From: a virus
Virus record (IMG/VR): IMGVR_UViG_3300042914_003164
Coordinates: 45,691-109,690 of that record
DNA length: 64,000 nt
Strand: one strand, 5' to 3'
The notes beneath the pieces were generated by a model, which was not told the origin of the DNA, ran no database searches, and saw only the letters and a list, made by a program, of their open reading frames with translations. Shown piece after piece: positions 40,413 to 56,720 of the stretch (positions are counted from its first letter, which is position 1; the number at the start of each line of letters is the position of its first letter). Position numbers and translations under genes: made by a program.

Positions 40413-40661
40413 ATGGCTGTCACTATCAAACCCTGTAGGCACTTGGATCACGATTCAAGTCGCTACCCAAGTTGCGAGCTTCTGGATTGCGCTCCGCACT
40501 TTCCAGATGTTAAATACTGGAGTCGCAAAGACCCAGACGGAAATCCTCAAAAAGTTCAATTTTGTAAAAGGATCGGTCGCGTTCCCGGTATTTTTCAGTG
40601 CTACCAGCAGGGCGAGATGCACTGCTACTGCCCCTCCGGCGAGCAGGAGGAGTGCCAGTGA
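40413..40661 (+). CDS. Cys-rich hypothetical protein
   Basis: 7 Cys in 82 aa. Confidence 0.65.
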   Translation: MAVTIKPCRHLDHDSSRYPSCELLDCAPHFPDVKYWSRKDPDGNPQKVQFCKRIGRVPGIFQCYQQGEMHCYCPSGEQEECQ

Positions 40662-40692
40662 CCGACCAGCACCGCGCCCGCCGTTTCACGCC

Positions 40693-41010
40693 ATGACTTC
40701 TTCACTAGATCCGACAACGCAGCTGATCAAGCTTGTTTCGGTTGTTGCTGTTACTGCTTTTGTTGGCGCATTCACCATCCCCATTGGTTGCAACATTTTC
40801 GTTGCTTTGTTGCGCTGCTTTATTCGCCGTCGCCGTAAGCGAGAGGCCATTTGCTTTATCACTAGCGTTTTATTTGCCGTTGGCTCCGTACTGGTGCCCA
40901 TCTTGTTTTGGTATGCAGTCCCCAATCCGCTCTTCCTCGTTTCCGCATCACTTTTCTCTCTTTTGATTGGCTCTTATTTAGCGCAAGGGCTAGATCCTCA
41001 CCGAGTCTAA
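40693..41010 (+). CDS. Small multi-TM membrane protein
   Basis: Three hydrophobic segments; ATG overlaps the stop of a 12-codon mini-ORF. Confidence 0.55.
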   Translation: MTSSLDPTTQLIKLVSVVAVTAFVGAFTIPIGCNIFVALLRCFIRRRRKREAICFITSVLFAVGSVLVPILFWYAVPNPLFLVSASLFSLLIGSYLAQGLDPHRV

Positions 41011-41050
41011 TCCCTTTCTCCACTCACAGCCTTCTATTTTTTTTATTGCC

Positions 41051-41234
41051 ATGACCACGATTTTCTGCACCTTTTTGGTGCTGCTGTTATTGCCCGCGCT
41101 GTTCCTGTTGTGGCTGACGGAATCCCGACCAGCAACGCGCCCGCCGCTGGCGCCGCGATGGGCTCACGTACCGCGCCATTGCGGAGCGGTTGGGCTGCTC
41201 ACAGACCACCGCTCGCCGGTTGGTGGCGGCCTGA
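41051..41234 (+). pseudogene. Frameshifted TM-anchored HTH protein
   Basis: MTTIFC..LLWLTESR, then a +1 shift at ~41129 continues QQRARRWRRDGLTYRAIAERLGCSQTTARRLVAA*. Confidence 0.7.
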
Positions 41235-41257
41235 TCACTCGCTAGGGAGACACAGCC

Positions 41258-41884
41258 ATGACAACGCATCAATGGATAACAGATCGCCGGCCAACCGCAA
41301 AAGATGCAGACAAAAATGGCGCAGTAATGATATTGGTGAACGATTCGAGAGGTGATGCCGGTGAACTAACGGCGCCCTGGCAGCAGGTCGGTCTTGGTAC
41401 TTTGTGGCAAAATACTATGCACAACCAAGGCGACCTACAATTCCCGCCCACCGCTCGCTGGTTGATTAAGGGAGGCATTCTTGGCCGGCTGCTCTCATGC
41501 CGCCTGCACCCACGAAACAATGGAGGCACCATGACCGACCAACACCGCGCCACGCCTGAAGATTGGGGTCTCGCAAAAAGCGAAGCCGAAGATGGCTCTC
41601 ATGCCGACTCCTGCCTACTCGAACTCCGCGCCCGCGTCGCAGCGCTAGAGGCAGCTCAGGTCAACACCCCGCCAACCTCGCCAGCACCACTCTCCCAAAC
41701 TTTAGTGGCGAGGATCCATCGACGATGCGGAGGTGGAGAACAGGCTGTTCGAATCGCGATTTGTGAAGTAGCAGATTGGCTGCAGTTTATTTCTAGTTTC
41801 CATGAAAATAAAGACGCACTTTTTCAAGCAGCGTTGTTAATTCGCAAGCAAGCCCGCCTTACGCAATCCGACTCGCAGCCATGA
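41258..41884 (+). CDS. Modular hypothetical protein (probably two fused genes; internal start at 41531)
   Basis: WITDR.PT..DAD module, then MTDQHRATP..W, CLLELRARV.ALEAAQ and AI.EVA.WL modules. Confidence 0.65.
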   Translation: MTTHQWITDRRPTAKDADKNGAVMILVNDSRGDAGELTAPWQQVGLGTLWQNTMHNQGDLQFPPTARWLIKGGILGRLLSCRLHPRNNGGTMTDQHRATPEDWGLAKSEAEDGSHADSCLLELRARVAALEAAQVNTPPTSPAPLSQTLVARIHRRCGGGEQAVRIAICEVADWLQFISSFHENKDALFQAALLIRKQARLTQSDSQP

Positions 41885-42510
41885 CCGACCAACACCGCGC
41901 CGCGCCTGAGCAGTGGGACTATGTGGATGTGTGGGGAGTGGTCCACGACTGTGCACCCAGTTCCTGCATCCTCGAACTCCGCGACCGCATCGAAGCCCTA
42001 GAAGCCGCCCAGCTGGAGCAGGCCGAGAGCCACAGGTTCTGCACTGATGCCATCGTTCGGCGGGTGGAGGCGCTGGAGGCATTTGATCACCACCCACTGC
42101 TTGCTGCCGTTCGGGCACAGTCCAAGGCCGTCGCTCATTTCGGCAATCGCCTGGAGGCGCTGGAGGCCGCCCAGCGCTACCAATTTCGTAGCGCCACGGA
42201 AAAGGTGCCCACGACCCGTCTCTACAGCTACAGCGTCGGCCCGGCCAAGCCTCTGGATGAGTTGGGCCAGGGGCACACATTGGCAAGCCCTGAGCCCGCC
42301 AGCGCCGAGGCCCAGTCTGGGAGGCTGGTGGAGAGGGTGACGGCCCGGATTGAGTTCGGCATCAATGCCGAACTGGACCCGGAAGGCATCGCCCGCGCCG
42401 CAATCCGTGAGGTGACGGCGGCGGCAAAAGAGCGAATCGCTCCTTTCAATCCGTGGCTGAGATGGAACGACGTTGCTCAGTGGCTTGAACAGGAGGCCGA
42501 CCGTGGCTGA
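41881..42510 (+). CDS. Modular hypothetical protein
   Basis: MTDQHRA.PEQW, CILELRDRIEALEAAQ, EAQS..LVERV, ARAAIREV, WLEQEA modules. Confidence 0.7.
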   Translation: MTDQHRAAPEQWDYVDVWGVVHDCAPSSCILELRDRIEALEAAQLEQAESHRFCTDAIVRRVEALEAFDHHPLLAAVRAQSKAVAHFGNRLEALEAAQRYQFRSATEKVPTTRLYSYSVGPAKPLDELGQGHTLASPEPASAEAQSGRLVERVTARIEFGINAELDPEGIARAAIREVTAAAKERIAPFNPWLRWNDVAQWLEQEADRG

Positions 42511-43219
42511 CCAATTTCCTGGCCCCCACAAAAATGGTCCTCACCCCAGCGGCCGGATTCTTAAAACAGAGAGCAAAGTTATGAGTAAAAAGAAAAACCT
42601 AGCTGGTCTGTTTTTTGGTAAGATTGAGATAATCAAAGAAGCGGACCCATGCTTTGTAGGAACAAAAAGAGATCGCCGCACTCGCTGGCTGTGTCGTTGC
42701 GTATGCGGCAAGGAGTGGCTTGTCCGCACATCAAATCTTACTGCGGGCAACATTGTTAGTTGTGGGTGCATAAGTCGAACAAAGCATGGTCTGCACAAGT
42801 CCCCAGAGTATTCTGCATGGCGCGACATGATCAAGCGTTGTACAAACCCCAACTGCAAAGTGTTCAAGCATTACGGCGGCAGAGGTATAAGCGTTTGCGA
42901 CTCTTGGCAGAAATTTGAGAATTTTTATCGCGATATGGGATCGCGACCATCAGGCAGTCACACGCTTGACAGGATTGATAACGAAAAAGGCTATGAGCCA
43001 TGTAATTGCCGCTGGGCAACGATGTTAGTCCAATCAAGAAACACTAGGCGTTGCGTTCGCATTCTGTACGCGGGGCGCGAAATGGCACTTTCGGAAGCGA
43101 TTTCCATGTCTGGCCTCAAAGAATCAACGGTTAGGGGGCGCATAAGTTCTGGCTGGCCCGAAGATTCGTGGTTTTTACCCTGCGGATCAAAACGCCCTCT
43201 TTTACCTTCGGAACAGTGA
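42503..43219 (+). CDS. HNH homing-endonuclease-like protein (ATG alternative at 42581)
   Basis: WLCRC.CG, SCGC, Y..W..M..RC.NP....YGGRGI.VC..W..FE.F..DMG.RP, TLDRIDN.KGYEP.NCRWAT. Confidence 0.9.
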   Translation: MADQFPGPHKNGPHPSGRILKTESKVMSKKKNLAGLFFGKIEIIKEADPCFVGTKRDRRTRWLCRCVCGKEWLVRTSNLTAGNIVSCGCISRTKHGLHKSPEYSAWRDMIKRCTNPNCKVFKHYGGRGISVCDSWQKFENFYRDMGSRPSGSHTLDRIDNEKGYEPCNCRWATMLVQSRNTRRCVRILYAGREMALSEAISMSGLKESTVRGRISSGWPEDSWFLPCGSKRPLLPSEQ

Positions 43220-43464
43220 CTGAACATTCATTATCCCCCGCGGCTCAGGCGGTGCTGGATGCGGTGCTGGATGAAACAGCGCCTTTATCTGAGCAACACC
43301 AAACGCGAGCAGATGCCGCCGCCGCCCTCCGCGCTGCTGTGGATCAAAGAAAGCTCGGACCCGACGAATGGGAAGGCTCGCAACCCGATGACTACGAACG
43401 AGGTTGGAACGCTGCACTCCGCAGCATTACCGCCCTCGCCACCGAACTGGATCCCATTCAATGA
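43216..43464 (+). CDS. Modular hypothetical protein
   Basis: LSPAAQAVLDA, AAALRAA.DQ, ALATEL modules; GTGA overlap. Confidence 0.65.
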   Translation: MTEHSLSPAAQAVLDAVLDETAPLSEQHQTRADAAAALRAAVDQRKLGPDEWEGSQPDDYERGWNAALRSITALATELDPIQ

Positions 43465-43706
43465 TCACACCCCTATTCACCGCCCTAGCCCGTAACGCCA
43501 CCGCCAGGGCTCACCTTGTTGGCGCCGAAGTTGCCGCTTTAGAACGGCTCGAAATGCAGCACCTTTCTGATATGGATTACAAAGCTGCGGCTAATGCTTA
43601 CATTCAAAAGCGGGATACGCGCACATGGTACTGGCGCGAGCTGGCTACCGCCGCCCACCTACTGGGCAGCCCATGGTGTGATGCTGAGCGCTTGGGGGGT
43701 CGGTGA
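43461..43706 (+). CDS. Hypothetical protein, paralogue of 46436-46675
   Basis: F.ALA..A.ARAHL.G.E...YWRE.A.AA.LLG.PW..AERLG.R is shared. Confidence 0.65.
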   Translation: MITPLFTALARNATARAHLVGAEVAALERLEMQHLSDMDYKAAANAYIQKRDTRTWYWRELATAAHLLGSPWCDAERLGGR

Positions 43707-43924
43707 TGCCGCGCCAGCCCTCGCAAGAGCGCGGCTGCGACGGCAAGGCCAATCTAGGCCGCCGCTACCAGGCCAACGCCAACCGGCTGGCTCTGCGTCA
43801 TGGCAAGTGCTACGGCGTCTACCGCTGCCCGCATTGTGGAGGCACACACCTGACCACCAAGCTCGACAACGCCGAGCAGTACCAACCGCTCCTGTACGTC
43901 ACCCCATGCCCCGCTTCTACCTAA
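43703..43924 (+). CDS. Small Zn-ribbon-like protein
   Basis: C.GK ... YRCPHCGG.HLT motif. Confidence 0.6.
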   Translation: MMPRQPSQERGCDGKANLGRRYQANANRLALRHGKCYGVYRCPHCGGTHLTTKLDNAEQYQPLLYVTPCPAST

Positions 43925-44028
43925 TTCACACCACCGCGGCCCTTGCCTGTGTTGCAGTGCTTGCCGCCTTTGGGTATGATCGTGATGCTGTTCAGTTCAT
44001 TTTATCCACTCATCTCGCGCTAACATGA
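43906..44028 (+). CDS. Small membrane peptide
   Basis: Hydrophobic 40-aa ORF, ATGA-coupled to the next gene. Confidence 0.35.
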   Translation: MPRFYLIHTTAALACVAVLAAFGYDRDAVQFILSTHLALT

Positions 44029-44330
44029 GCTGCGTTTCCAACGTCATACTGCTGACCTTTATTGAAGACCCAGGAATCAAAGATGTACAGTTGTGGCTGT
44101 CAGGTGCTGGTGCGTTTCCTTTGAACCAGATTGACGGGTTTGCAGGCGGAACAAAAGCCGTGGAGCACGAGATTTGGGCGGGAGCTTACAACTGGCTTGA
44201 TGTTCCCGAGTTTGTTAAAGCTGTAAAAAGCGCAAACTGGGCGTTTCCGTCCGATGTGCAGCTTTTGATCAAGGAAGAGGGCGGCGAGTTGTTTTCATTG
44301 CGTGCTGGCACCATGCCAGTGGTTTGCTAA
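44025..44330 (+). CDS. Hypothetical protein
   Basis: GG.K..E..IW.GAYN.L...F....W..P..VQL.IK.E pattern. Confidence 0.65.
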   Translation: MSCVSNVILLTFIEDPGIKDVQLWLSGAGAFPLNQIDGFAGGTKAVEHEIWAGAYNWLDVPEFVKAVKSANWAFPSDVQLLIKEEGGELFSLRAGTMPVVC

Positions 44331-44363
44331 ACCCCTCATTCTATCCACTCACTCAAACCCACC

Positions 44364-44636
44364 ATGCTTGAAGACTTTCGCGACATGCTCAACGAGACTG
44401 AAGGTCGGATTTTCTTAGTAATCGCCTTAGTCGCAATCGCAATAATGACATTTGCTGTGGCCGGAGCACTTGAAGAAGGAAAGCAATGGCAGCAATTTGC
44501 CGCTGACCATGATTGCGTCAAGGTTGAACAAATAAAAGGCAACGTTTTAATTGGTATGGGAACAGTTGTGACTACGACAGTGGAACCTGACAAGATCGGC
44601 TGGCGCTGCAATGATGGCGTCACTTACTGGCGCTGA
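44364..44636 (+). CDS. Membrane-anchored hypothetical protein
   Basis: TM helix plus WQQF...H.C..V...W.CNDGVTYWR. Confidence 0.65.
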   Translation: MLEDFRDMLNETEGRIFLVIALVAIAIMTFAVAGALEEGKQWQQFAADHDCVKVEQIKGNVLIGMGTVVTTTVEPDKIGWRCNDGVTYWR

Positions 44637-44724
44637 TCAAATCCCGGCTCATCACACTCCGAAGGCCCGCGCACCGGACAACACTCCCCAACCCTCCCAG
44701 CGACCACCACTTCCCTACTTCAAA

Positions 44725-45321
44725 ATGACAAATCAACTATCTGACCACGAAGATCACTTCATGCGCATTGCGCACGCTAGGCCATTTACGGACTTGCAGC
44801 TCAACATTGCCCAGATTCTTGCACGCGGGCTTGAAGGGTTGCCTGAAAATGATGGCAGCCGGGATTGGATGGAAAACGTTGTAGGCATCTGCCTAGAGGC
44901 CATTGCTGAGGCTGTCCAGCCCGAGCCGGAGGGGGTGGGGGTGACGGATTTCAAAGAGGAGTTGATGGCCGCCTGGGACAAAGCGATCTTGCTGCCTCGA
45001 ACGGGAAGGCTGGCGGAATACAGAGCTTGGCTTGCTCACGTACTGGCTCTTGTGTGGGCCGTTGGGCGTCGCCCCACCACCAAGCCGGTGCCGGTGAGCG
45101 AGCGGCTGCCGGGGCGGGAGGATTGCGCACCGTGGCCAGGCGAACCGGATGCGACACATTGGGCCTGGGCTGGAAAGTGTGTTGACGGTGGCTGGGAGTG
45201 GTCTCAGCTCAGCATGTTGGGCCTGGGATCAAACACCTTGGGCCGCATCATTGCTGGCGGTGGATGGACTCACTGGCTCCCCCACCACGCCCTGCCGGTG
45301 CCCGGCGCGGAGGTGGGGTGA
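44725..45321 (+). CDS. Modular hypothetical protein
   Basis: QPEPEG, RPT.KPVPVSERLPG.EDC, THWLPH.ALPVP modules. Confidence 0.65.
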   Translation: MTNQLSDHEDHFMRIAHARPFTDLQLNIAQILARGLEGLPENDGSRDWMENVVGICLEAIAEAVQPEPEGVGVTDFKEELMAAWDKAILLPRTGRLAEYRAWLAHVLALVWAVGRRPTTKPVPVSERLPGREDCAPWPGEPDATHWAWAGKCVDGGWEWSQLSMLGLGSNTLGRIIAGGGWTHWLPHHALPVPGAEVG

Positions 45322-45656
45322 TGACGGCTCTCCGTTACACGCCAGACAGAAACCATCCCTACTGGTGTTACTCCCCCGAGGGCGACGGATTCACATTCTG
45401 GGCTACAGCTAAAGAGCGTGACGACTATGCCGAGCAGGAAATACGCACATACCTGGACGACAGTGAATGGTCTGAGGAAGTAGAAGGTGTCATGGCGGGC
45501 GTCGTCACTGATGTTGCGACTGCAGTTGATATTCAGCGACCGGCTGGAGAAATTGACGAGGAAGGCTACGACGAAAGCGACGAGGGGCCATGGGAAGACA
45601 AAGACCAGATCAGGTGCAACTACCAACTCAGGCCATTGACCGAATCTCAACCATGA
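45321..45656 (+). CDS. Acidic hypothetical protein
   Basis: TGATG-coupled 111-aa ORF. Confidence 0.65.
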   Translation: MTALRYTPDRNHPYWCYSPEGDGFTFWATAKERDDYAEQEIRTYLDDSEWSEEVEGVMAGVVTDVATAVDIQRPAGEIDEEGYDESDEGPWEDKDQIRCNYQLRPLTESQP

Positions 45657-45850
45657 CCACCCCACCCCCACCCCTATCCCCAGCATTGGAAGAACTGCAA
45701 GCGGCAGCAAGGCCGCTCATGGATTACCTGAAGAAGCGACATCATCCGCACCTCAAAGCAATCGTTGATAGCGATAGCGCGGAAATTGTTGAAGGCATCG
45801 CGTGCGTGCGTGCCCTCGCCACCGAGCTGCGGCAGGAGGGGCGGGAGTGA
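45653..45850 (+). CDS. Hypothetical protein framed by LSPA and ALATEL modules
   Basis: Shares both termini with 43216-43464 but has an unrelated core. Confidence 0.6.
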   Translation: MTTPPPPLSPALEELQAAARPLMDYLKKRHHPHLKAIVDSDSAEIVEGIACVRALATELRQEGRE

Positions 45851-46062
45851 GCGCTATCTATCACAGGATCAGGTATATGTCCCCGTCATCGGAGTCTTTT
45901 GAGTCTGTGCGCGAGGCCGTGTGTGCAGCCCTGTGGGAGTCCGCTAACTGCTACGCTTCTCCCAGGAAAATCACGCAAAACAGACAAACCCTATGGGATT
46001 CAGAATTGCAAGACTTGGATGATTTTGCGGAATCTATTGGCGTCAACCCAGACCTTTACTAG
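45847..46062 (+). CDS. Hypothetical protein
   Basis: GTGA overlap. Confidence 0.5.
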   Translation: MSAIYHRIRYMSPSSESFESVREAVCAALWESANCYASPRKITQNRQTLWDSELQDLDDFAESIGVNPDLY

Positions 46063-46068
46063 GCATGG

Positions 46069-46386
46069 GTGCCCGAGCCTAAAAACAACCACAAATATAG
46101 GCTTATGGCTGGATTTCAAGATCAGTATTTACAGCGCCCGCCCGAGCAGGACCCCAGAATCGCAGAACTGGCTGAGCGCTACCATCACGAAACCGAAGCC
46201 TATGATCGCACTGTTTGCAGTGGACCGATCTTGCACGGCCTGGTAATGCCAGCCAATGGCCGCGAATTTGTGCTTATCAACAAAAACGCTCGTCTCGTTC
46301 TCCGACAGGTCTTGGCCGAGGCCGCTCAAGCGGGTATTCCCCGACTGGACATGCAACGCGCTATCAGCAGGCATGTCAACCGCTAG
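46069..46386 (+). CDS. Hypothetical protein
   Basis: LA..YH..TEAYDR.VC.G pattern. Confidence 0.55.
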   Translation: MPEPKNNHKYRLMAGFQDQYLQRPPEQDPRIAELAERYHHETEAYDRTVCSGPILHGLVMPANGREFVLINKNARLVLRQVLAEAAQAGIPRLDMQRAISRHVNR

Positions 46387-46435
46387 ACAGCGACACTGAA
46401 GATCGAGTAACATCAATGTTCGCCCACGAAACTCC

Positions 46436-46675
46436 GTGAATCCCTCCGCTTTCTTTGCAGCTCTCGCGGTTTGCGCCATTGCCCGAGCCCATCTCGCAGG
46501 AGATGAGGCGAGCAAGCTTCGTAACGCTGGCAACCTTGTCGCCACAGATGTTGCTATGCGCCGGTACTGGCGGGAGGAGGCGGCTGCCGCCACTTTGCTG
46601 GGCCAGCCCTGGCCCGAGGCCGAACGCCTAGGGGATCGCCTAATTCCCGTGGAGGGCGGGTGTTATGCCTTCTGA
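46436..46675 (+). CDS. Hypothetical protein, paralogue of 43461-43706
   Basis: Shared motifs as noted for 43461. Confidence 0.6.
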   Translation: MNPSAFFAALAVCAIARAHLAGDEASKLRNAGNLVATDVAMRRYWREEAAAATLLGQPWPEAERLGDRLIPVEGGCYAF

Positions 46676-46747
46676 TAACTGTCTCAGTCTGTTGCAGTAG
46701 ATTATTGCAGTCTGTCAATTTTTGCTTCTAGCCAAGCAGTTGCTTCC

Positions 46748-47488
46748 ATGCTCAACAAAAAAGACCCATACTATGGGGCTCTGCTCATAGAAGAGGCGAA
46801 GCTTCATCTTGGTACTGTTATGGCGGGCCAAGACTCGGAGCCGTTTTTTTCTGCAATGCTTCAAATTGTTGAAGATCGAATTTATCTTAAATACACAACA
46901 CTCCGAAACAAAGAAGTAGAACTCAAAGGCATCAAAGACTTTTTGCAAAGCGTTTACTATGGCCTTGGCATTAAAGACATGGAAACGTTCTTGTGCAATG
47001 TTGTCAAGTCTGCCTTAAAGGAAAGGTCAAGAAATAAATACGCCCATAGATTTATTGAATGGCTCAGGGATCAGGATCCCTCTTTTCAGTTTCCCGACTC
47101 TTACTTTGAGTTTAGGCGTGTAATGAGAATGATATATTACAACAAGCAAATGCCAAGACCGAAAAAGGGGCTTGCCTACAAAACGGCTAGATTCCTTTAC
47201 AATCAAGATCCAGAGATTCTGCAGCACATAGGCTACGGTAGAAGATACCTTACCGTTGAAAGCTGCTACTACGGAGAGGGCTACGAGGAAAAGCGCAAAA
47301 CCCTTAAGCCTATCAAGCTTTACCAAAATCCAACGCTGCACCAGCTTGAAGAAGTCGCAGAAGCGCTTTTCGGGAGGTTTGGCCATTTCAAAGCGGAGCG
47401 CCTCGCTGCTATGCTGACTGAGCGCTGCGAGCTTTCTAAGGCGCTAAAACAAAGTCAAGAGGATGAACAACTTGCAGACGGCAACTAG
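46748..47488 (+). CDS. Hypothetical protein (246 aa)
   Basis: Long ORF with phage-like codon usage; overlaps the resolvase gene. Confidence 0.7.
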   Translation: MLNKKDPYYGALLIEEAKLHLGTVMAGQDSEPFFSAMLQIVEDRIYLKYTTLRNKEVELKGIKDFLQSVYYGLGIKDMETFLCNVVKSALKERSRNKYAHRFIEWLRDQDPSFQFPDSYFEFRRVMRMIYYNKQMPRPKKGLAYKTARFLYNQDPEILQHIGYGRRYLTVESCYYGEGYEEKRKTLKPIKLYQNPTLHQLEEVAEALFGRFGHFKAERLAAMLTERCELSKALKQSQEDEQLADGN

Positions 47489-47969: not shown

Positions 47970-48013
47970 ACACCTGGCTGCCTGATCCGTTGCAGAAAAA
48001 TGGTCCGATCCCC

Positions 48014-48042
48014 TTGCGTTTGGGCGACCTACAGGCTATGAT
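48014..48042 (+). promoter_or_regulatory. Sigma70-type promoter
   Basis: TTGCGT-17 nt-TATGAT. Confidence 0.6.
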
Positions 48043-48068
48043 TTCTTGGTCGTCAACGATTTTCCACG

Positions 48069-48638: not shown

Positions 48639-48660
48639 TCCATTCCTGCATCCAGCAAAC

Positions 48661-48690: not shown

Positions 48691-48698
48691 ATTTACCA

Positions 48699-49121: not shown

Positions 49122-49405
49122 GCTTGCTGGGCTGAGGGTTGCGCCTCAGCTTTGAACTCCCTTCCCTCTAGCCCAGTTTTTTCCATTTGGACCTTCCTTA
49201 CTTTTATCAAGAAAGCTGCACTGTCGGCCATTTCCAGCTCCTTCGTTATCTCAGCGATGCACTCTTTGTCAATGCTTGCCGCTGTTACGCCAAGAAGGTC
49301 AAGCAACTCCTTGAGGCACTTGGCACACACAGCCGCCGATTTTACGGCTTTTCTGTGAGCTTCGGAAATTGCCTGACTCTCTGCTTGACTGAGTGGTAGT
49401 TTCAT
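49118..49405 (-). CDS. Hypothetical protein
   Basis: ATG at 49405; convergent overlap with the MazG-like stop. Confidence 0.5.
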   Translation of the reverse strand: MKLPLSQAESQAISEAHRKAVKSAAVCAKCLKELLDLLGVTAASIDKECIAEITKELEMADSAAFLIKVRKVQMEKTGLEGREFKAEAQPSAQQA

Positions 49406-49595
49406 TGGCTTTCTGGATGGTGATCTGGGTCCAGTCTGGGTACTGCTTCTCAAGGTGCCTGAGCGCAGCCGCATTCCCCCCGACCCACCCATGTAGGGCG
49501 CCAATGACCGGGATGGCTGAATCCCGAGTAACTAGGAATCGGTAGGAGACTGGTTCCATCCGACTACTATATCGACTAAGCTCAATTTTCGCAAC

Positions 49596-50090: not shown

Positions 50091-50614
50091 AGTATCACGA
50101 AAAAAAAACAAAAGGCGGCTGGCCAATGTTTACCAGTTCGCAAACTGATAACAGGTTTGCTCTCTGCAAAAAAGCTTTATGCCCAGACAGGAGTTTGCTT
50201 GTCAGATTCAAAGATTGCTATCAATCTGAAGAGCATATTCAAGAATTTTGCAGACTGAAATTCCTGTCAGAAGAATACTTTGAGTACAATGTTCGGGACC
50301 TTAAGCTACTGCCTTGGGGTGGAAGCTACAAAGTCTATAAGTTTGCCCTTGAGGGTGCATTCTATCCCTTTGTAAGGTGTGTTCAAAAAACTAGGCCACT
50401 TGATACTGGGATTATCTGGATTGGCACCAAACACGAGTATCCAAGGATCTGGGTTGACAATAGTGTTGCCAACTGGCTTTGTCCGTACTCTCGTGGCGGC
50501 CATGTAATGACTGAGCCGTTTGAACCTCTCTACAAAGTTCTTGACAATTGGGCCAGGCTTTCTGATCGGCGTTTTTTCCCGTTCCTCAACCTGCCCCCCG
50601 TCCCAGGCCTATAA
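50075..50614 (+). CDS. Hypothetical protein
   Basis: 179-aa ORF overlapping the previous gene. Confidence 0.6.
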   Translation: MARAVKYHEKKTKGGWPMFTSSQTDNRFALCKKALCPDRSLLVRFKDCYQSEEHIQEFCRLKFLSEEYFEYNVRDLKLLPWGGSYKVYKFALEGAFYPFVRCVQKTRPLDTGIIWIGTKHEYPRIWVDNSVANWLCPYSRGGHVMTEPFEPLYKVLDNWARLSDRRFFPFLNLPPVPGL

Positions 50615-50632
50615 AACGGATTTCCCTCATAA

Positions 50633-51193
50633 ATGGCGCTGGACTCGCCATGTGGTGATTTCTCTGGTAGTATGGGGAGGTCTTTCAAGGACGCCATGGA
50701 TCAAGAAAAACCGCAGGGCAAAATTTTCTGCCGCCATGAGCTGGCGAGAACTACTCCAGTCCCTAAGACGCTTCACGAGCGGATGATGCTCGAAGCGGAG
50801 CCGATCATTCAGCACAACTGGACTGATGTTGCGATTCACGACAAAAACAGACTCAAGCGTGTCAAAAACAACCACGTCATGATGTGGATGGTGAACGAAA
50901 CGGGTTCCTATTTGAGCCCTATGTATTGCAACATCTTGGACAAGAAAAACTGGACATCAAGCCCGATGGCCGCTCTTGCCCCTGTTCAGATTTTCATGAA
51001 CAAATTGCAACATCAAATGTTTGCAGTTGGGGCAAAAGCGGCTGAGCAGTACAAGCCCCGTTGCTACCTCGTCATCAAAAAAGATGACACTGACGGAGGT
51101 GAGATCATCTCAGTCAACTTTGAAGAGTTTGCGTCTTTTTGCACTATTGGCCTATTTCAATGGACACTCAGGGGGTTCCAACCATGCAAGTAA
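50633..51193 (+). CDS. Hypothetical protein (start uncertain)
   Basis: 186-aa ORF; ..TDV..HDK..L pattern. Confidence 0.6.
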   Translation: MALDSPCGDFSGSMGRSFKDAMDQEKPQGKIFCRHELARTTPVPKTLHERMMLEAEPIIQHNWTDVAIHDKNRLKRVKNNHVMMWMVNETGSYLSPMYCNILDKKNWTSSPMAALAPVQIFMNKLQHQMFAVGAKAAEQYKPRCYLVIKKDDTDGGEIISVNFEEFASFCTIGLFQWTLRGFQPCK

Positions 51194-51537
51194 CTGATCT
51201 TCACCCAGCTGAAATCGCTGAATGTATTGCCTGCGTTTGCAGTGTGTATGCAAAAGAACATGCCAGGATTGAGCGGTGCAAGAGACTGGGCCTGCTGCTG
51301 AGGTTTTTGCGAATCCCAGCCTATAAAGGGTTTTTTGACGCTGCCAGCAAGGGCTATGCAGATCAGGCCATTAGACGGGATTTGATTACGCACATGCTCA
51401 ATGCCTATCAAGTCGGAGACAACGAAACATTCTTTTACCTTGAGCACTATTTTGCGCCAGGGTCGCCAATCCTGAAATTAAAGTCTGGTTGGATGGCAAA
51501 CCTCCAGAAAACCACCAAATTCACGCCAGCACAATGA
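51184..51537 (+). CDS. Hypothetical protein
   Basis: ATG start overlapping the previous gene. Confidence 0.6.
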   Translation: MQVTDLHPAEIAECIACVCSVYAKEHARIERCKRLGLLLRFLRIPAYKGFFDAASKGYADQAIRRDLITHMLNAYQVGDNETFFYLEHYFAPGSPILKLKSGWMANLQKTTKFTPAQ

Positions 51538-51821
51538 AACCACTTTCTCTTTTTGCTTCATCCTGCCTCCTTGGTTTACTGTTTCAGCCATTGTCAGCAA
51601 AAACCTCTCAATTGATTCCAGCGGTGTTTGCCCCTGCTTTTTGCGCGTCAATGGAAGCTGGCAATAGCAACGACGAGTCAATTCGCTTTGCCGTGAGAAT
51701 GTCTATTGACACAACAAAGCCACCGGCCTTCAAAGTTGGTGACACGTCACTTGATGTTCGCGCTTCTGTGTATGAAGCTCAGCGGCAATGCCCCAAATAC
51801 TTTGAAAAGGGGTGGCAATGA
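51534..51821 (+). CDS. Small secreted protein with a Cys pair
   Basis: Signal-peptide-like N-terminus; FC...G ... CP. Confidence 0.6.
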   Translation: MKPLSLFASSCLLGLLFQPLSAKTSQLIPAVFAPAFCASMEAGNSNDESIRFAVRMSIDTTKPPAFKVGDTSLDVRASVYEAQRQCPKYFEKGWQ

Positions 51822-51997
51822 AATTCCCTCCTGCATGGCAGCAAAACTGTGGCAATTGCTACTACAAGCGCTCTGCCACTGAAGGGGCGAATAGTGTCAG
51901 CTTGTGCTGTCGCTACGCCCCAAGGCCGGGAGACCTGTATCCAGTTCACACTCCGGCTATCAACTGGTGCGGCGAATGGGCTCCAGCCAACCAGTAG
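51812..51997 (+). CDS. Small Cys-rich protein
   Basis: CGNC..CCRYAP...WCGEW. Confidence 0.6.
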   Translation: MAMKFPPAWQQNCGNCYYKRSATEGANSVSLCCRYAPRPGDLYPVHTPAINWCGEWAPANQ

Positions 51998-52016
51998 ACA
52001 AATTTCTGGCCAGCCC

Positions 52017-52046
52017 TTGACAAGCAAGCCAACCCACCCTTAAAAT
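52017..52046 (+). promoter_or_regulatory. Sigma70-type early promoter
   Basis: TTGACA-18 nt-TAAAAT. Confidence 0.65.
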
Positions 52047-52086
52047 CAAAAAAGCTACAAACCGTTCATCTCGTTACCCCCGCACG

Positions 52087-52260
52087 ATGGCACCCCGAAA
52101 ATTTCCGCTTGTTGACAATATGCAAGCGTATGGCGGCAACTTTGTCAGCAAGCTGGCAGAAGCTATGGTCGCGGCTGATCCCGTCAACTTTGACAGGCTG
52201 TGCGCCGCTTTCCCTGAAGTTGTCGAAAAGTACACAACTGTCGGAGGCCATGACAAGTGA
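52087..52260 (+). CDS. Small hypothetical protein (57 aa), not in the ORF track
   Basis: M..YGGNFV..LA.A...AD..N..RL..AFP.....Y; GTGA overlap with the next gene. Confidence 0.7.
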   Translation: MAPRKFPLVDNMQAYGGNFVSKLAEAMVAADPVNFDRLCAAFPEVVEKYTTVGGHDK

Positions 52261-52718
52261 GCGCTAATCCCTCTAGCCCAGTTTTTACATCTGCCAGTGA
52301 AGTCCTTGCAGCTTGCAAGACCGTTGGTTACGAAACTCGTAATGACACGAGTGGCCTTGGCGAGAAGCGTTTTTACGTTTGGCTTCCTGATGGCGATAGC
52401 GAGGCGGCTGCCACCTTCTGGAGTGAGCAGCAGTTTGTGAACTGGGGCAATGCCCATTTCGCCAGGCTTGCTGTCGAGGCTGAGCGCAGGGCTGCCGGAT
52501 GGGAGCTGCTGGACGCCGAGGAGGCCCCGAGTGGCCTCTGGGGCTGGCATTCCCCTTGCGGAACCCATGAGGACGCCTGGCGTGCCTCTGGGCGTCCCAT
52601 GCCAGAGGATCGAGTGGCTGGCCAGCCCGTTAACACCCCCGCGCCAGCTCGACAGTCATCAAGGAGTCGCACTGATGATTCTGGATGGCTGAGCATGGTA
52701 TCTGCCGCAATGTTTTAA
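52257..52718 (+). CDS. Hypothetical protein
   Basis: 153-aa ORF. Confidence 0.6.
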   Translation: MSANPSSPVFTSASEVLAACKTVGYETRNDTSGLGEKRFYVWLPDGDSEAAATFWSEQQFVNWGNAHFARLAVEAERRAAGWELLDAEEAPSGLWGWHSPCGTHEDAWRASGRPMPEDRVAGQPVNTPAPARQSSRSRTDDSGWLSMVSAAMF

Positions 52719-52764
52719 GTTTATAGATTTGCTGTGCCAACAAAAACACTAATCCAGTAAAGCC

Positions 52765-53088
52765 ATGGCCGCCACCAACTACACCAAGCCAGCTGACAGC
52801 GACTACCAACTGGTTCGCATCAAAGGCAAGCAAGCCGAGATTCTCGACCCCGAAACACTTGGCAAGATTCTGTCCATCCTGGAGCTTCACGAGTGCGACG
52901 AAGGGCAAACCGATCGCCCACTCTGGGATGCGCTTTATCGCTCTCAGCCTTTTCACTCGGCGCTAACCGATCCAACCGGAGAGTATTGGCGGATCGGGCG
53001 ATTCTTTGCCCACGCAGCCTACGAAATTCCACGCATGTTCCTGTGGGCAGTGAAGCAAGGGCATGTCCCCCCAGCCCCTCCCGCCTAA
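52765..53088 (+). CDS. Hypothetical protein
   Basis: 107-aa ORF ending in the 27-bp repeat. Confidence 0.6.
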   Translation: MAATNYTKPADSDYQLVRIKGKQAEILDPETLGKILSILELHECDEGQTDRPLWDALYRSQPFHSALTDPTGEYWRIGRFFAHAAYEIPRMFLWAVKQGHVPPAPPA

Positions 53089-53418
53089 CCCCACGGCCCG
53101 CCGGAGCCTATCCGGCACCCATCCCACTAAACTCAAACCAATGGACACTCCCAGAAAGATGCAATCCGAAACTGACACAGGCTGGTGGACATTAGAAAAT
53201 AACCTAGCGGTCTACAAACATTGGCACGGTAAGACTGACCGTTACGACCGACCCAGCCTGGAAGTGGCCATCCAAAACGTAAAAAACAATCGAAACGCCT
53301 ACGCAACTTATGAAGCATATCAACGCGATTGGTTTCATTTTGAGCGCGGCCTATGCCTTTTTAAGGCCGCCGAAGCTGCGCATCAAGCCGTCTAACCCCA
53401 CGGCCCGCCGGAGCCTAT
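53085..53418 (+). repeat. Perfect 27-bp direct repeat (53085-53111, 53392-53418) flanking one gene
   Basis: CTAACCCCACGGCCCGCCGGAGCCTAT occurs twice; each copy contains the upstream gene's TAA. Confidence 0.95.
53141..53395 (+). CDS. Hypothetical protein (cassette between 27-bp repeats)
   Basis: ATG at 53141, 84 aa. Confidence 0.65.
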   Translation: MDTPRKMQSETDTGWWTLENNLAVYKHWHGKTDRYDRPSLEVAIQNVKNNRNAYATYEAYQRDWFHFERGLCLFKAAEAAHQAV

Positions 53419-53419
53419 A

Positions 53420-53590
53420 GTGTTCTTCGCCTATCCACAGTTCAACGATAGTGTTTGTGTTGGCGACCGCATTGCCCTGGGTTGGCCTTGGGGATGGCGG
53501 GTCGCAACTGTCGTCTCAAAAGCAGAAACAGGCTTCGGTCGTCCCCTTTGGGTCTTTGATCCATCTACTGCAGTGCATTACACACCATGA
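53420..53590 (+). pseudogene. Probable 5'-truncated gene remnant (VFFAYPQF...)
   Basis: 56-codon open frame starting immediately after the truncated second repeat, ATGA-coupled to the next gene. Confidence 0.45.
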
Positions 53591-53874
53591 CTAGCACATT
53601 TCCTAAATACGATGATCTCGACAGCGCTATTTGCAGCTTTTTGGCAACCAGAGACGGACACCCGACCAACAACTCAGCTTTGCTTGACCTAGCTCGTCAG
53701 GCCATGCCCGGCTGTCCTACATGGCGCTTGATTGACAGGCGCATGATTGCTATGCGCAAGGCTGGACGTATTAAGTTTGTCGGTAACGGCAAAAACAACC
53801 CATCAGGCAAGACACATGGTTGGGTCGTCTGCGCCCCATGTATCACAGCTCAGGAGAAGTTGCGCGATGACTGA
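53587..53874 (+). CDS. Hypothetical protein (possible winged helix)
   Basis: WR.IDRR...MRKAGRI.F pattern. Confidence 0.6.
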   Translation: MTSTFPKYDDLDSAICSFLATRDGHPTNNSALLDLARQAMPGCPTWRLIDRRMIAMRKAGRIKFVGNGKNNPSGKTHGWVVCAPCITAQEKLRDD

Positions 53875-54160
53875 AGCAATCTGGGAGACAAAGGACGGCA
53901 CAAAAATCCCCATCTCACGCATGTCCGATCTTCACCTCCTTAACACAGAACAGTTCCTAAAGCGCAAGTTTCGCCAGCTTCAGGATGTGTGTCCACCCGA
54001 TTTCCAAGGTGAAATGGCTCAAATGATCGCTGATGATCAATGGAATTCAATGCAAGAAGCCGACATAGAAGATGTATTCCCCAGCTATGCTGACATCTGT
54101 GCCGAAATTCAAAAGCGCGGTCTCGTGACTTTTGAGCAGTTTGCAGCACAGCAATCATAA
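53867..54160 (+). CDS. Hypothetical protein
   Basis: W.TKDG..I.I..MSD.HL.N...L phage motif. Confidence 0.65.
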   Translation: MTEAIWETKDGTKIPISRMSDLHLLNTEQFLKRKFRQLQDVCPPDFQGEMAQMIADDQWNSMQEADIEDVFPSYADICAEIQKRGLVTFEQFAAQQS

Positions 54161-54162
54161 AT

Positions 54163-54573
54163 ATGGTTGATGCGCTTAGTTCGCTGTGCGCTTATGACTC
54201 AAGACACCCAGACTATGAATTATTCTTTGGACGTGAATATCCCAAACCAAGTCCAAGCCCAGGTTGCTCCTGCGACAACTGCTTTTATGGTCGCACGGAG
54301 CTGGCTAATGAAATCATCAGGCTCCGCACTCTTATGAATAACGAACACTACGAATGGGAGCTGCAAGACGCCAGGGGTGAATGGGTTGCCGGCGGATCAG
54401 CCGACGACCAAGACGCAGCACAGCAGGAGGGTTTCCGCTATCTAACTGTTTACTCACAGGATGGGCCACACAAGCTAACTATCCGCAGGCATCAGGTCCA
54501 CACCATTATGGAAATGCAGACTAACCCTACAAGTGACCACCCCCTCCGTGAAAACAATGACACAACAAACTAA
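54163..54573 (+). CDS. Hypothetical protein (likely two-module fusion)
   Basis: LC.YD.R.P...C.CDNCFYGRT.LA module plus YEWELQD..GEWVAGGSA module. Confidence 0.6.
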   Translation: MVDALSSLCAYDSRHPDYELFFGREYPKPSPSPGCSCDNCFYGRTELANEIIRLRTLMNNEHYEWELQDARGEWVAGGSADDQDAAQQEGFRYLTVYSQDGPHKLTIRRHQVHTIMEMQTNPTSDHPLRENNDTTN

Positions 54574-54790
54574 CTTGCAAGCATTATGCGCTGAACAGCT
54601 CCCCGAGCTGCGCGGCATGTTTGAACGCATTCTTTGCGTAGCTCGATCATCCGATGGGCCGACAGTTGGACATATACAACTCGCTGACCAGTTAATTGAT
54701 GCTGTGGTGAGTTGGTCTGAGAATTCTCCGGCCCAGCCCGAGCCGGAGGGAGTCGAGCTACCAGACCACTCTCAATGGACGCAGCCATGA
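54557..54790 (+). CDS. Modular hypothetical protein
   Basis: ALCAE... and AQPEPEG module. Confidence 0.55.
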   Translation: MTQQTNLQALCAEQLPELRGMFERILCVARSSDGPTVGHIQLADQLIDAVVSWSENSPAQPEPEGVELPDHSQWTQP

Positions 54791-54876
54791 TGGTCAACAT
54801 CGACGTGGACAGCATTGTTTCAACTATCGCCATAACGATAATTATGGTGGCCTATCTTCGGAGGTTTTCACGATGA
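54787..54876 (+). CDS. 29-aa single-TM peptide, not in the ORF track
   Basis: ATGA overlaps at both ends; IVSTIAITIIMVAYLRR. Confidence 0.45.
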   Translation: MMVNIDVDSIVSTIAITIIMVAYLRRFSR

Positions 54877-55673
54877 CTACGCAACCGACAAACCGCAACC
54901 CCTTCAGCGACTGGAGGCCAGCAGCGGGAACTAGGCGCGATTGCGGAGAGCTTGAGCTAACTATCCCAATCGACCGGGATAGCTACTTTACCATCACCGC
55001 AGACCCCGATACGGCTGCCATGGTTCCTGTGGTACTGAGACAACTCCTGGCCCAGCCCAAGCCGGAGGGGGATGGGCTGTTTCATTGGCGGAACCTTGGC
55101 GACGGAAAGCCCGTTCAAGTTCGGGAGTGCCCTATGTGCGGTATCGCCCCGGCAAACGTGGACGATTGCGGTCGATTCGGTGATCCAGCCTGCCCCTATT
55201 TCGGTGTTGGCGAACCCGAGCCGGAGGAGGTAAAGGAGTTGGTGGATTGGTTAAACGCAAGCGCCCGTGAATGGGCGGACCTTGGCGAATACGACGAAGG
55301 TAGCAAGTGCCACCGCTCCGCTGACATCCTCACCCGCTTCGCCCGCCCCACCATCAAGCCGGTGCCGGTGAGCGAACCGCCTTGGGAGCGCGAGGGGTGG
55401 TGTGATGCGGATATGACCAATCAACACCCAATCACTCCATCCTCAGAGCTGATCAAGATGGTTTCACTAGAAGCACAGGCTGCGTTTCCAGGTGACGAAG
55501 GTGGAGGTGTTGAGACTGACAAAGCCCGCGAAGAATACATCGCCATCTTCTTTTCCCGATGGGGTGCAGATCAAGAGCTAAGGGCGTGCGTAGAAAAGGT
55601 CAGATTGATGGAGGGCAATAGTATTGCTGAGGAGCTTTTTGAAGCTCGCCGCCCGAACCACGCTACCCCGTAG
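54873..55673 (+). CDS. Modular hypothetical protein
   Basis: AQPKPEG, CxxC insert, EPEPEEV.ELV.WL, RPTIKPVPVSE.PWEREGWCD, MTNQHPITP, RWGADQEL modules. Confidence 0.65.
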   Translation: MTTQPTNRNPFSDWRPAAGTRRDCGELELTIPIDRDSYFTITADPDTAAMVPVVLRQLLAQPKPEGDGLFHWRNLGDGKPVQVRECPMCGIAPANVDDCGRFGDPACPYFGVGEPEPEEVKELVDWLNASAREWADLGEYDEGSKCHRSADILTRFARPTIKPVPVSEPPWEREGWCDADMTNQHPITPSSELIKMVSLEAQAAFPGDEGGGVETDKAREEYIAIFFSRWGADQELRACVEKVRLMEGNSIAEELFEARRPNHATP

Positions 55674-55959
55674 ACACTCGCACTACCACAGGGAACCGCC
55701 ATGGCCATCACCATTCATCTCCAAGTCGGAGAGTCCATCCACCAAGCGCTGGCCAGGTGTGTCCGCGAAAATTACTCTGGGGGAGATGGCAAGACTATCG
55801 TTATTCCACCTGGGGTAAGCATTGTTGGCTCCAGCATTAGGCAGACGCGCATCATTGAGCGCAGAACCACCGGCATCCCATTTCTTTATGGAGATTTTTT
55901 ATGGCTAAAGCGCTTAGCCGAGCTTAAGCAGATCACCCTCTGAACACTCGCACTACCAC
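55674..55959 (+). repeat. Perfect 16-bp direct repeat (55674-55689, 55944-55959) flanking one gene
   Basis: ACACTCGCACTACCAC immediately after two consecutive stop codons. Confidence 0.9.
55701..55943 (+). CDS. Hypothetical protein (cassette between 16-bp repeats)
   Basis: 80-aa ORF. Confidence 0.55.
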   Translation: MAITIHLQVGESIHQALARCVRENYSGGDGKTIVIPPGVSIVGSSIRQTRIIERRTTGIPFLYGDFLWLKRLAELKQITL

Positions 55960-55961
55960 TC

Positions 55962-56720
55962 ATGAATCAAGACCATCAGCAGCACCGCGCCACGCCTGAC
56001 CAGTGGCACAATCTTCTGTACCAGCGTCTGAAGCTGAATCGCGTCCCAGATCACATCTCAATCACGCTGGAGCTTGCCTCTCGCATCGAGGCATTGGAGC
56101 TGGCACTACGCATACAATCTGGCAACCTTGCACCTAGCGAACAGGCTGAGCTGGGCGTTGTTCCTGTCTCAAGCCTGAGGGCCGCCATAGATCGCGCTGC
56201 AGTCGAGGCACTTACATCAGCAATGGGTAAACTTCGCACTACCGACGAGGCCCAGTCTACTGGTTTGCTGGAGACCTTAGTGGATGCCATTACGAATAGT
56301 GCAGCCGCCCATGGAACTGCCGACGAGCTTGCCCGCGAAGTCATCCGCGCCTTCGCCGCCTGGCTCCGCACGGGCCGGATGCTGAACGCCGCCGAACTGC
56401 TGGAGCAGGAGGCTGAACGCCGCCGAGCTGCTAGAGCGGGAGGCCGACCGACGACCTCCCCACTCTCGTCATCGGCTCATGCTGTGCTGGATGCCTATCA
56501 GCAAAGAGCGCTAAATAGTCGTGAATGGCAGGACGGAAAAGGCCCGCAACTGAAGCTCGCCGCCGCCCTCTATGCCGCTGCGCATCGCCTGACAAATGAT
56601 CGCCGTCAACTTGCTGCCATCGCTGACGAACTGGAGGGAGTCGATTCGCGCCCACCGGACTCCCCCTACCTGTTTGATACCTCAACAAAGGAGCAAAAGC
56701 CACCACCGCGTCTTACTTGA
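55962..56720 (+). CDS. Modular hypothetical protein
   Basis: QHRATPDQW, LELASRIEALE, EAQS, AREVIR.FAAWL..LEQEA, PLS..AHAVLDA, LAAAL.AA, LAAIADELEG. Confidence 0.7.
   Translation: MNQDHQQHRATPDQWHNLLYQRLKLNRVPDHISITLELASRIEALELALRIQSGNLAPSEQAELGVVPVSSLRAAIDRAAVEALTSAMGKLRTTDEAQSTGLLETLVDAITNSAAAHGTADELAREVIRAFAAWLRTGRMLNAAELLEQEAERRRAARAGGRPTTSPLSSSAHAVLDAYQQRALNSREWQDGKGPQLKLAAALYAAAHRLTNDRRQLAAIADELEGVDSRPPDSPYLFDTSTKEQKPPPRLT

Follow-up and report, generated by a model that had tools for sequence, protein, structure and literature searches.

How the mosaic genomes of phages arise has long been debated, with exchange at short conserved "linker" homologies set against random illegitimate joining followed by selection. 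Phages also carry free-standing homing endonuclease genes, such as seg and mob of T4. Several described cases of exchange come close to the one considered here. In the gp38 adhesins of T-even phages, glycine-rich motifs (GRM) separate hypervariable segments (HVS); the motifs are thought to form a structural core and the variable parts exposed loops (PMC3157838). In the account given there, which cites Tetart et al. 1998, the HVS come from a "restricted pallet" of types that are interchanged between related phages by recombination. In T4-type phages, short repeats known as PeSLs, which are intergenic units of a promoter and a stem-loop terminator, are spread across a hyperplastic region of small ORFans, where recombination inserts, deletes and replaces genes (PMC2839356, PMC4122927). 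De Paepe et al. 2014 described relaxed recombination by phage Rad52-like recombinases, which leaves traces of homology at the borders of exchanged fragments (PMC3945230). Here we describe a locus of about 16 kb in a 64,000-nucleotide (nt) stretch of phage DNA, referred to below as the window, which covers positions 45691-109690 of the IMG/VR virus record IMGVR_UViG_3300042914_003164 (109,690 bp, rated 100% complete). The locus encodes three families of small modular proteins, in which ordinary homologous recombination at short conserved in-frame blocks probably re-sorts cassettes.

Three families built from conserved blocks

A preliminary description, made from the window alone, had noted that short segments of DNA, termed joints, are reused in frame by at least eight open reading frames (ORFs), and had proposed that they act as recombination adaptors. 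Each of the joint strings that it quoted is present at its assigned position (14/14), and a repeat search independently recovered the same strings (repeat families D2-D8, D12, D14 and D18). Between 40600 and 56800 there are 78 exact 13-mer pairs and 38 exact 16-mer pairs, against means of 3.6 and 0.06 in 200 second-order Markov simulations; for the 13-mers, the excess over chance is about 20-fold. Two control stretches of the same size, also from the window, hold 6-8 shared 13-mer pairs and no 16-mer pairs. The repeats are all direct and on a single strand, and the inverted repeats that were detected are weak and scattered.

The ORFs that share the joints had been regarded as otherwise unrelated. 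They are instead paralogues in three modular families, and all of the joints are conserved family blocks. The products of the genes at 41531 and 41881 are 53% identical over 45 amino acids (aa) in blastp (E=3e-8), those of 41881 and 55962 are 45% identical over 42 aa (E=4e-4) with a second collinear high-scoring segment pair, and alignments with relatives give, in each family, collinear architectures over the full length with a fixed order of blocks. The families consist of small modular phage proteins, and each of them has two or three copies in this 110-kb lake phage genome.

In an alignment of 38 proteins (A1), family 1 follows the plan J1 (MTDQHRATPEQW), V1, J2 (CILELRARIEALEAAQ), zero to three optional cassettes, J3 (ASAEAQPGGLVERV), V3, J4 (ARAAIREVA.WL), V4 and J5 (LEQEADRG). 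Joint (i), MTDQHRA.PE.W, is the N-terminus of three paralogues (41531-41884, 41881-42510 and 55962-56720), and a genome-wide profile search finds exactly these three copies. Later family-1 blocks had also been picked out in the preliminary description: LELR.R.EALE is J2, CGAGGCCCAGTCT is J3 and LEQEA is J5. The family has six conserved helices. In an AlphaFold model of the 41881 protein (mean predicted local distance difference test score, pLDDT, 77), a short helix (residues 9-22) precedes a hairpin of helices 25-67 and 71-107 (pLDDT about 90-97), a disordered cassette (108-142) and C-terminal helices 143-159, 167-186 and 195-208. In this model J2, J3, J4 and J5 lie on helices, V3 and V4 lie on inter-helix loops, and one cassette lies on the disordered stretch. 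Compared with PDB structures in Foldseek, the family-1 model had no counterpart at E<=0.001, a protein atlas search with family 1 returned viral hypothetical clusters only, and the proteins of the families yielded no informative result in Pfam, in PADLOC or in most of the PHROG scans.

In family 2, AQPEPEG linkers connect successive modules, and a Trp-rich C-domain that runs from PVPV(A/S)ERLP to HWLPHHALP follows them. QPEPEG is the Pro/Glu interdomain linker, and joint (ii), RPT.KPVPVSE, is the start of the C-domain, whose end reads THWLPHHALP. In one of the family-2 proteins (protein b in Table 1) the C-domain is shortened and is followed by a phrog_32006 domain. Family 3 has the plan K1, U1, K2 (AAALRAAADQ), U2, K3 and the signature LSPAAQAVLDA…AAALRAA…IAxELE; the modules LSPAA.AVLDA and ALATEL of the preliminary description are its K1 and K3. 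Its copies are the gene at 43216-43464 and the C-terminal half of 55962-56720. The earlier remark that gene 55962 reads like genes 41881 and 43216 fused was correct, this ORF being a fusion of family 1 and family 3. The ORF at 45653-45850 has a K3-like block only and might be a divergent member of family 3. The family-3 gene of relatives comes directly after the family-1 gene, and its GTG start overlaps the family-1 stop (…CGTGGCTGA). Since the blocks are structural helices, interdomain linkers or domain starts, the conservation of the joints is explained by selection at the protein level.

The proteins of the three families are probably early, non-structural and host-interacting. An early role in host interaction, under diversifying selection, would fit the design, in which a scaffold carries variable loops, as well as the location of the genes behind those for replication and recombination and their great allelic diversity. 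The three families are abundant and unannotated and comprise hundreds of variants, and the combination of a scaffold with variable loops or modules suggests a function in an arms race.

Cassette reassortment among lake phages

The cassettes are 10-45 residues long and fall into discrete types at each position; the types differ in length and are mutually dissimilar, and members of one type are near-identical. Reassortment was counted in the 69 family-1 proteins that could be parsed, which have 30 types of V1, 32 of V3 and 27 of V4. Distinct pairings number 59 for V1-V3, 51 for V3-V4 and 61 for V1-V4, compared with 30-32 under full linkage and 62-63 after label shuffling; the respective counts of four-gamete quartets are 8, 5 and 9. 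Overall, the pairing of cassette types is far nearer to random than to linked. For family 3, at least nine U2 types accompany the U1 type of the window, and at least 20 U1 types accompany the U2 type of the window. Exchange also crosses family borders: P0141 (108 aa, found on 7 contigs) is a natural hybrid of a family-1 N-terminus (MTDQHRAT…RIESLEAA) and the family-3 segment K2-U2-K3.

Additional evidence for reassortment came from the DNA. Patches that are 96-98% identical occur in otherwise different contigs and end at blocks, beside unalignable DNA. From K1 to the end of K2 (43234-43346), the window is 96.5% identical to four relatives (L002, L012, L014 and L025), and the identity stops at K2. 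Likewise, 40679-41229 (551 bp) is 96% identical to L003 and L022, whose upstream sequence differs, and this patch begins at the J1-like remnant listed in Table 1. The Cys-rich cassette of family 2 (55046-55238) is flanked by other modules in relatives such as L003, L058 and L069. Contigs of four lake runs, compared with 40600-46100, joined 41240 to 41528, 41240 to 41876, 42080 to 42317, 44937 to 45072, 45126 to 45280, and 45668 to 45812. Loose contig ends, beyond which the continuation is unlike the window, lie at 41917, 42080, 43256, 43314, 43346, 44916, 45126 and 45287, all of them block edges, and at K2 (43314-43346) divergent contigs are found on either side within the same runs. Between relatives, whole genes also vary in presence: the 41258 ORF, the 41531 paralogue, the 45321 gene and the HNH gene. 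The expectation that segments between joints vary independently, with breakpoints at the joints, is thus borne out by the cassette pairings, by 96-97% identical cassettes in different flanks and by contig divergence. The opposite expectation, of collinear full-length paralogues with no enrichment of breakpoints at the joints, agrees with the data in its first part, in that the families are collinear, but breakpoints do fall at the joints.

The families are widespread in freshwater. A 21-nt pattern of joint (i) has matches in 34 IMG/VR contigs, and adding a protein-pattern search gave 51 unique family-1 genes. In a collection of 5.8 billion proteins, searched at E<=0.001, there are 471 family-1 clusters and 76 family-3 clusters, nearly all of them hypothetical and none with a Pfam domain. 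Sequencing runs in which the locus occurs belong to 19 studies and are metagenomes of lakes or other freshwater, and the family-1 relatives come almost all from lake metagenomes. Some of the material is from one lake on dated occasions, which could let recombination and cassette turnover be tracked in reads. None of 50,697 phage records matched 40.5-46.5 kb or 52-57.6 kb in megablast. Of 185,579 species genomes scanned, one had a match, on a 2.8-kb contig of a metagenome-assembled genome (MAG) whose isolate name contains an IMG metagenome number and a 2014 date; because only this one MAG contig matched, the scan provides neither a prophage nor a lead to the host. The label "cyanophage" used in the preliminary description is unproven, because the closest matches of the large terminase are to cyanosiphoviruses at only about 40% identity.

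Base composition bears on the direction of transfer. The family genes of the window have a G+C content (GC) of 58-63%, against 49-52% for the backbone (40600-46000 and 54500-56800 compared with the rest; 52% for the whole window). The large relatives that share the families have genomes of 50-64 kb and 62-65% GC and almost no further genes in common with the window phage. Because of the GC contrast and the dissimilarity of these donor-like relatives, the window phage looks like a recipient, and the data point to import across phage lineages, with cassettes circulating among quite different phages.

One of the genes that vary in presence, annotated as an HNH endonuclease, lies inside block K1 of the family-3 gene. 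The family-3 start and first codons stand upstream of it, SLSPAAQAVLDA resumes downstream, and the 5' half of K1 is duplicated. The GC of the HNH gene is 48.5%, against 59-61% in its flanks. An allele that lacks the gene occurs in the lake, where 2 nt separate 42512 from 43234 in a contig of run X11, and in L038 and L002 the junction is uninterrupted. The HNH label comes from PHROG annotation alone, the product having no Pfam domain at E<=0.01. That 41881 and 43216 were a single gene split by the HNH gene was considered and rejected: relatives have two adjacent, translationally coupled genes, and the HNH gene is therefore placed inside the 5' block of the second (family-3) gene.

Ordinary homologous recombination at the blocks, which is our preferred explanation, would proceed by exchange between co-infecting phages, and possibly also between paralogues, through patches of 20-45 nt of high identity within the blocks. 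The enzymes would be whatever recombinase is at hand, which in the window phage may be a Rad52-type annealase with an exonuclease and a single-strand DNA-binding protein (SSB), and elsewhere other enzymes or those of the host. Every member needs the scaffold helices, interdomain linkers or domain starts that the blocks encode, and this would keep the products in frame. Many cassette types might be maintained in circulation by diversifying or frequency-dependent selection, and the putative homing-type endonuclease in K1 may, through additional double-strand breaks, promote co-conversion of nearby cassettes.

Block conservation and alternative explanations

The preliminary description proposed that the joints are kept as DNA adaptors for a Sak-type annealase, with paralogues as donors and combinatorial diversity as the purpose. 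Conservation of the joints as DNA was assessed by synonymous-codon differences, with the neighbouring small membrane-anchored helix-turn-helix (HTH) gene, whose protein is almost invariant across the same loci, as the control. J1 differs by 0.10, against 0.30 for the control (one-sided p=0.049, 7 codons), and its DNA (CAC CGC GCC ACG CCT GAG CAG TGG) hardly varies across 49 unique contexts, despite the use of ACG and CCT, which are minority codons (background 0.26 and 0.16). The values are 0.32 for J2, 0.43 for K1, 0.33 for K2, 0.20 for K3 and 0.33 for joint ii. The claim of DNA-level conservation holds for the pairs within the window (30/31 and 31/32); J1 may be conserved beyond the control, and J2, K1, K2 and joint ii match the control (0.32-0.43 vs 0.30). 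The joints are not saturated at synonymous sites, yet apart from J1 they are no more conserved than protein-constrained sequence. A constraint on the first half of J2 that appeared in a first test, on 16 loci, was not borne out by a larger sample.

The near-invariance of J1 would be expected of such adaptors, and so would the several copies of each family in the genome, the Rad52-family annealase 3 kb upstream, the cross-family hybrids and fusions (P0141 and gene 55962) and the nuclease gene within a joint. While these features are consistent with the proposal, the J1 difference is marginal, and its low synonymous variation could reflect constraints at the start of the mRNA. Moreover, the blocks have an obvious role at the protein level. 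The annealase predicted at 36999 is indeed encoded there, with a PF04098 match above the cut-off. However, PF04098 (Rad52_Rad22) is found in 0/5 of the large family-carrying relatives, which are 50-64 kb long and of which three are at least 90% complete; the same five have ERF in 0/5, AAA_24 in 1/5 and RecT-like in 2/5 (sub-threshold). Because these relatives have no Rad52-family gene, dependence on Sak is not general. The two joint-ii copies of the window are alike at 31/33 positions, no closer than many pairs from different genomes, about 6% of which score as high, and this comparison gives no sign of intragenomic gene conversion at joint ii. There is no evidence for a dedicated recombination system, and we consider the adaptor proposal unlikely. 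Nor is the design without precedent, as had been suggested: kindred designs are documented in T-even gp38 (PMC3157838) and in PeSLs (PMC2839356).

Next in plausibility, and likewise unlikely, is the view that the families, blocks, paralogues, annealase and K1 HNH nuclease jointly form a phage-borne cassette-variation system. Here, the annealase would mediate the repair of a nuclease cut in a block, with a paralogue or a co-infecting relative as the donor, and the loops of early proteins would be re-dealt; the near-invariant J1 DNA would be a selected site of recombination or cleavage. If true, such a system would be a functional analogue, in a bacterial virus, of pilin or VlsE antigenic variation.

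Lower again in likelihood is an origin by ordinary divergence, in which the genes are collinear duplicates, the joints reflect purifying selection and cassettes have never been exchanged. The window by itself shows paralogy only, the three families are collinear with a fixed block order, and synonymous variation of most blocks is control-like, all of which such an origin would produce. It does not readily produce cassettes that are discrete, unequal in length and mutually dissimilar but near-identical within a type, nor one type with many partners, nor 96-98% identical DNA that abuts unalignable DNA at block edges. We regard divergence without exchange as improbable.

The combinations could also be chimeric contigs, if assemblers had joined the reads of co-occurring strains across the blocks. 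The relatives are all metagenome assemblies of multi-strain lake samples, some conserved stretches are about 120 nt long (QDKLDRLIALD…LVERV) and exceed common k-mers, and Logan contigs break exactly at blocks. However, J4, K2, J1 and the linkers are 18-36 nt, below read length and below the larger assembly k-mers, and reassortment persists across them: V3-V4 has 51 combinations against a minimum of 32, and U1-U2 reassorts too. Family-1 proteins with the same sequence were recovered on 13-27 independent contigs and from separate metagenomes, four of them in one case (L002, L012, L014 and L025), and single Logan contigs hold a block together with a divergent flank on one side. Because the blocks are shorter than reads and identical proteins recur, the reassortment is probably not assembly noise, and a purely artefactual origin is improbable, slightly more so than divergence without exchange.

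Several points nonetheless weigh against recombination at the blocks. Linkage is not absent: V1 type 1 occurs with V3 type 0 in 6/8 cases, and the adjacent V3-V4 pair is the most linked (mutual information 2.17 vs 1.91 shuffled). The evidence is a comparison of assembled sequences, with every relative a metagenome assembly, and recombination events were not directly observed. The two sets of proteins were collected through their similarity to those of the window, which biases the cassette types, and many types are singletons, which pushes pairing counts toward the shuffled value. The conserved stretch between V1 and V3 (100-250 nt) may exceed the assembler k-mer, so that the counts for V1-V3 and V1-V4 could be raised by chimeras. 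Any 31-mer that is shared interrupts a Logan contig (k=31), so that breaks at block ends are partly expected, and in these contigs only loose ends and joints show real alternative flanks. Finally, selection on the cassettes is assumed, for proteins that have no Pfam, PADLOC or PDB match.

Programmed rearrangement or targeted mutagenesis, by a shufflon, an invertase switch or a diversity-generating retroelement (DGR), is extremely improbable: short repeats do lie at the borders of variable segments, but the repeats are direct and on one strand, the cassettes are unequal in length and unrelated, unlike DGR variation, and the 109.7-kb record contains neither a serine recombinase (PF00239, no match) nor a tyrosine recombinase above the cut-off (PF00589, only a sub-threshold match of 16.8 bits within a 2679-aa ORF), so that the site-specific recombinase and inverted crossover sites of a shufflon or invertase were not found in the genome.

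Neighbouring features and comparison with known systems

The features of the locus are collected in Table 1. The annealase gene is followed by the exonuclease-like gene and the SSB gene, all of them directly upstream of the joint region.

Table 1. Features of the locus and its upstream context, in window coordinates (position 1 is the first nucleotide of the window).
Feature	Coordinates	Strand	Details
Rad52/22-family single-strand annealing protein	36999..37772	+	Pfam PF04098 E=4.9e-34, 117.9 bits (cut-off 20.3); phrog_37089 "recombinase"; context, outside the families
Exonuclease-like gene	38699..39466	+	phrog_298 "exonuclease" E=3.9e-8; no Pfam match; context
Single-strand DNA-binding protein	39889..40308	+	phrog_44 E=1.2e-37; context
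J1-like 12-codon remnant (MTDQHRARRFTP*)	40658..40696	+	read from sequence; left border of imported patch
Small membrane-anchored HTH gene, usual upstream neighbour of family-1 genes	41051..41234	+	intact 60-62-aa homologues in relatives; HTH_23 E=1e-5
Optional 91-codon ORF, in frame with next gene	41258..41530	+	in L015 and L049; omitted in metagenome contigs joining 41240 to 41528
Family-1 paralogue a, 117 aa	41531..41884	+	J1 41540-41566, J2 41615-41656, J3-like 41693-41716, J4-like 41747-41770
Family-1 paralogue b, 209 aa	41881..42510	+	J1 41890-41916, J2 41968-42009, cassette A 42013-42081, J3 42304-42339, J4 42391-42414, J5 42481-42507
Duplicated 5' end of family-3 gene (VADQFP…TKMVLTPAA, 1-nt indel)	42503..42556	+	comparison with L038 VADQFPDATKMVLSPAAQAVLDA; GTG start overlaps family-1 stop
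HNH endonuclease gene inside block K1	42581..43219	+	phrog_374 E=3.3e-59, phrog_3377 E=6e-51; also open from GTG 42503
Family-3 gene, 82 aa	43216..43464	+	K1 43231-43263, K2 43318-43338, K3 43432-43449
Family-2 protein a	44611..45321	+	QPEPEG linker 44917-44934, joint ii 45070-45102, C-domain end THWLPHHALP 45268-45297
65-aa ORF with K3-like end	45653..45850	+	ALATEL 45812-45829; phrog_4621 E=2e-8; contig joint 45668 to 45812
Family-2 fragment, short ORF	54533..54790	+	ends soon after QPEPEG 54734-54751
Family-2 protein b	54873..55673	+	QPKPEG 55053-55070, EPEPEE 55212-55229, joint ii 55344-55376
Cys-rich cassette (CPMCG…C…C) between two Pro/Glu linkers, QPKPEG and EPEPEE	55046..55238	+	97-98% DNA identity to L003, L008, L019, L022 and L027
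Family-1 and family-3 fusion ORF, 252 aa, family-1 blocks	55962..56720	+	J1 55980-56006, J2 56064-56105, J3 56244-56279, J4 56331-56354, J5 56397-56420
Fusion ORF, family-3 blocks	55962..56720	+	K1 56463-56495, K2 56559-56579, K3 56613-56633

The HTH gene is frameshifted in the window by one extra C near 41128. This C is absent from contigs of four metagenome runs, one of them otherwise identical across 553 nt, and is either an assembly error or else a rare variant. A J1-like copy at 41125 sits in the HTH gene, and its likeness to J1 is partly due to the extra C. The optional ORF that follows (41258-41530) has no Pfam or PHROG match; the gene after it has a start codon at 41531 with a GGAGG site of its own upstream. 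A resemblance of the optional ORF and the family-2 C-domain to DUF551 was considered, received no support from Pfam and was rejected. The homologue of the ORF in L015 (4280-4552) is bracketed by direct repeats of the 3' end of the HTH gene (CTCGCCGGTTGGTGG), and that in L049 is likewise flanked; the repeats around the L015 ORF look like the signature of a gene-level insertion by short homology.

Other repeats and paralogues were seen beside the three families. An exact 19-nt repeat, TCCCTCTAGCCCAGTTTTT, which includes a CTAnnnT-like box, occurs at 49163-49181 and 52268-52286, 3.1 kb apart. A 31-nt direct repeat (53081-53111 and 53388-53418, 97% identical) lies at the 3' ends of the consecutive ORFs 52765-53088 and 53063-53395, and 53088-53128 is also 93-94% identical to L015, L002 and L025. 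Within the ORF at 56783-57547, positions 57118-57443 contain about 16 phased 12-nt units (60-72% identity) that give a four-residue periodicity rich in Ala, Trp and Glu (…AAWEAA…). The small ORFs 43461-43706 and 46436-46675 are paralogous (38% identity over 91 aa, E=1.6e-12) and have homologues in five related loci; they were placed in none of families 1-3.

Of the described systems, the gp38 adhesins offer the closest parallel in protein design. As in gp38, small proteins here have conserved motifs in a fixed order (families 1-3) and limited palettes of variable-segment types that recombine. Unlike gp38, the proteins have no PHROG or Pfam link to adhesins and no PDB fold match, their blocks are alpha-helices and Pro/Glu linkers rather than glycine-rich motifs, and their genes lie in an early or accessory region beside replication and recombination genes, outside the tail-fibre locus. 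There are also three families with several paralogues per genome and with cross-family hybrids and fusions, and the exchange is known from sequence comparison alone.

The locus shares with PeSL shuffling the gene-level presence and absence between close relatives. In contrast to PeSLs, the joints lie inside ORFs and in frame. Promoter-like sites in the joint region number 3 against 3.0 expected and terminator-like sites 12 against 7.4±2.7; neither is in excess, and none is at a joint. The likeness to relaxed recombination lies in the annealase, exonuclease-like and SSB genes upstream and in mosaics bordered by short, partly diverged homology. Unlike the temperate lambdoid phages of that study, which exchange gene-size fragments (PMC3945230), the window phage has no integrase and the exchanged units are sub-genic; the family is virtually absent from bacterial genomes, and relatives that share cassettes lack a Rad52-family gene. 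As for homing endonuclease genes, the HNH-annotated ORF resembles them in being polymorphic for presence, in lying in the conserved, target-like K1 with a short duplication, and in a GC unlike that of its flanks. It differs from established homing genes in that its identification comes from PHROG without a Pfam HNH domain, and homing is putative.

The locus thus resembles the gp38, PeSL and relaxed-recombination cases in its working but belongs to none of those families. In relation to the debate on phage mosaics, it is an example from natural populations of in-frame exchange at conserved blocks, visible below the level of the gene, with cassettes that move between phages as different as one with a 110-kb genome of 52% GC and others with 50-64-kb genomes of 62-65% GC.

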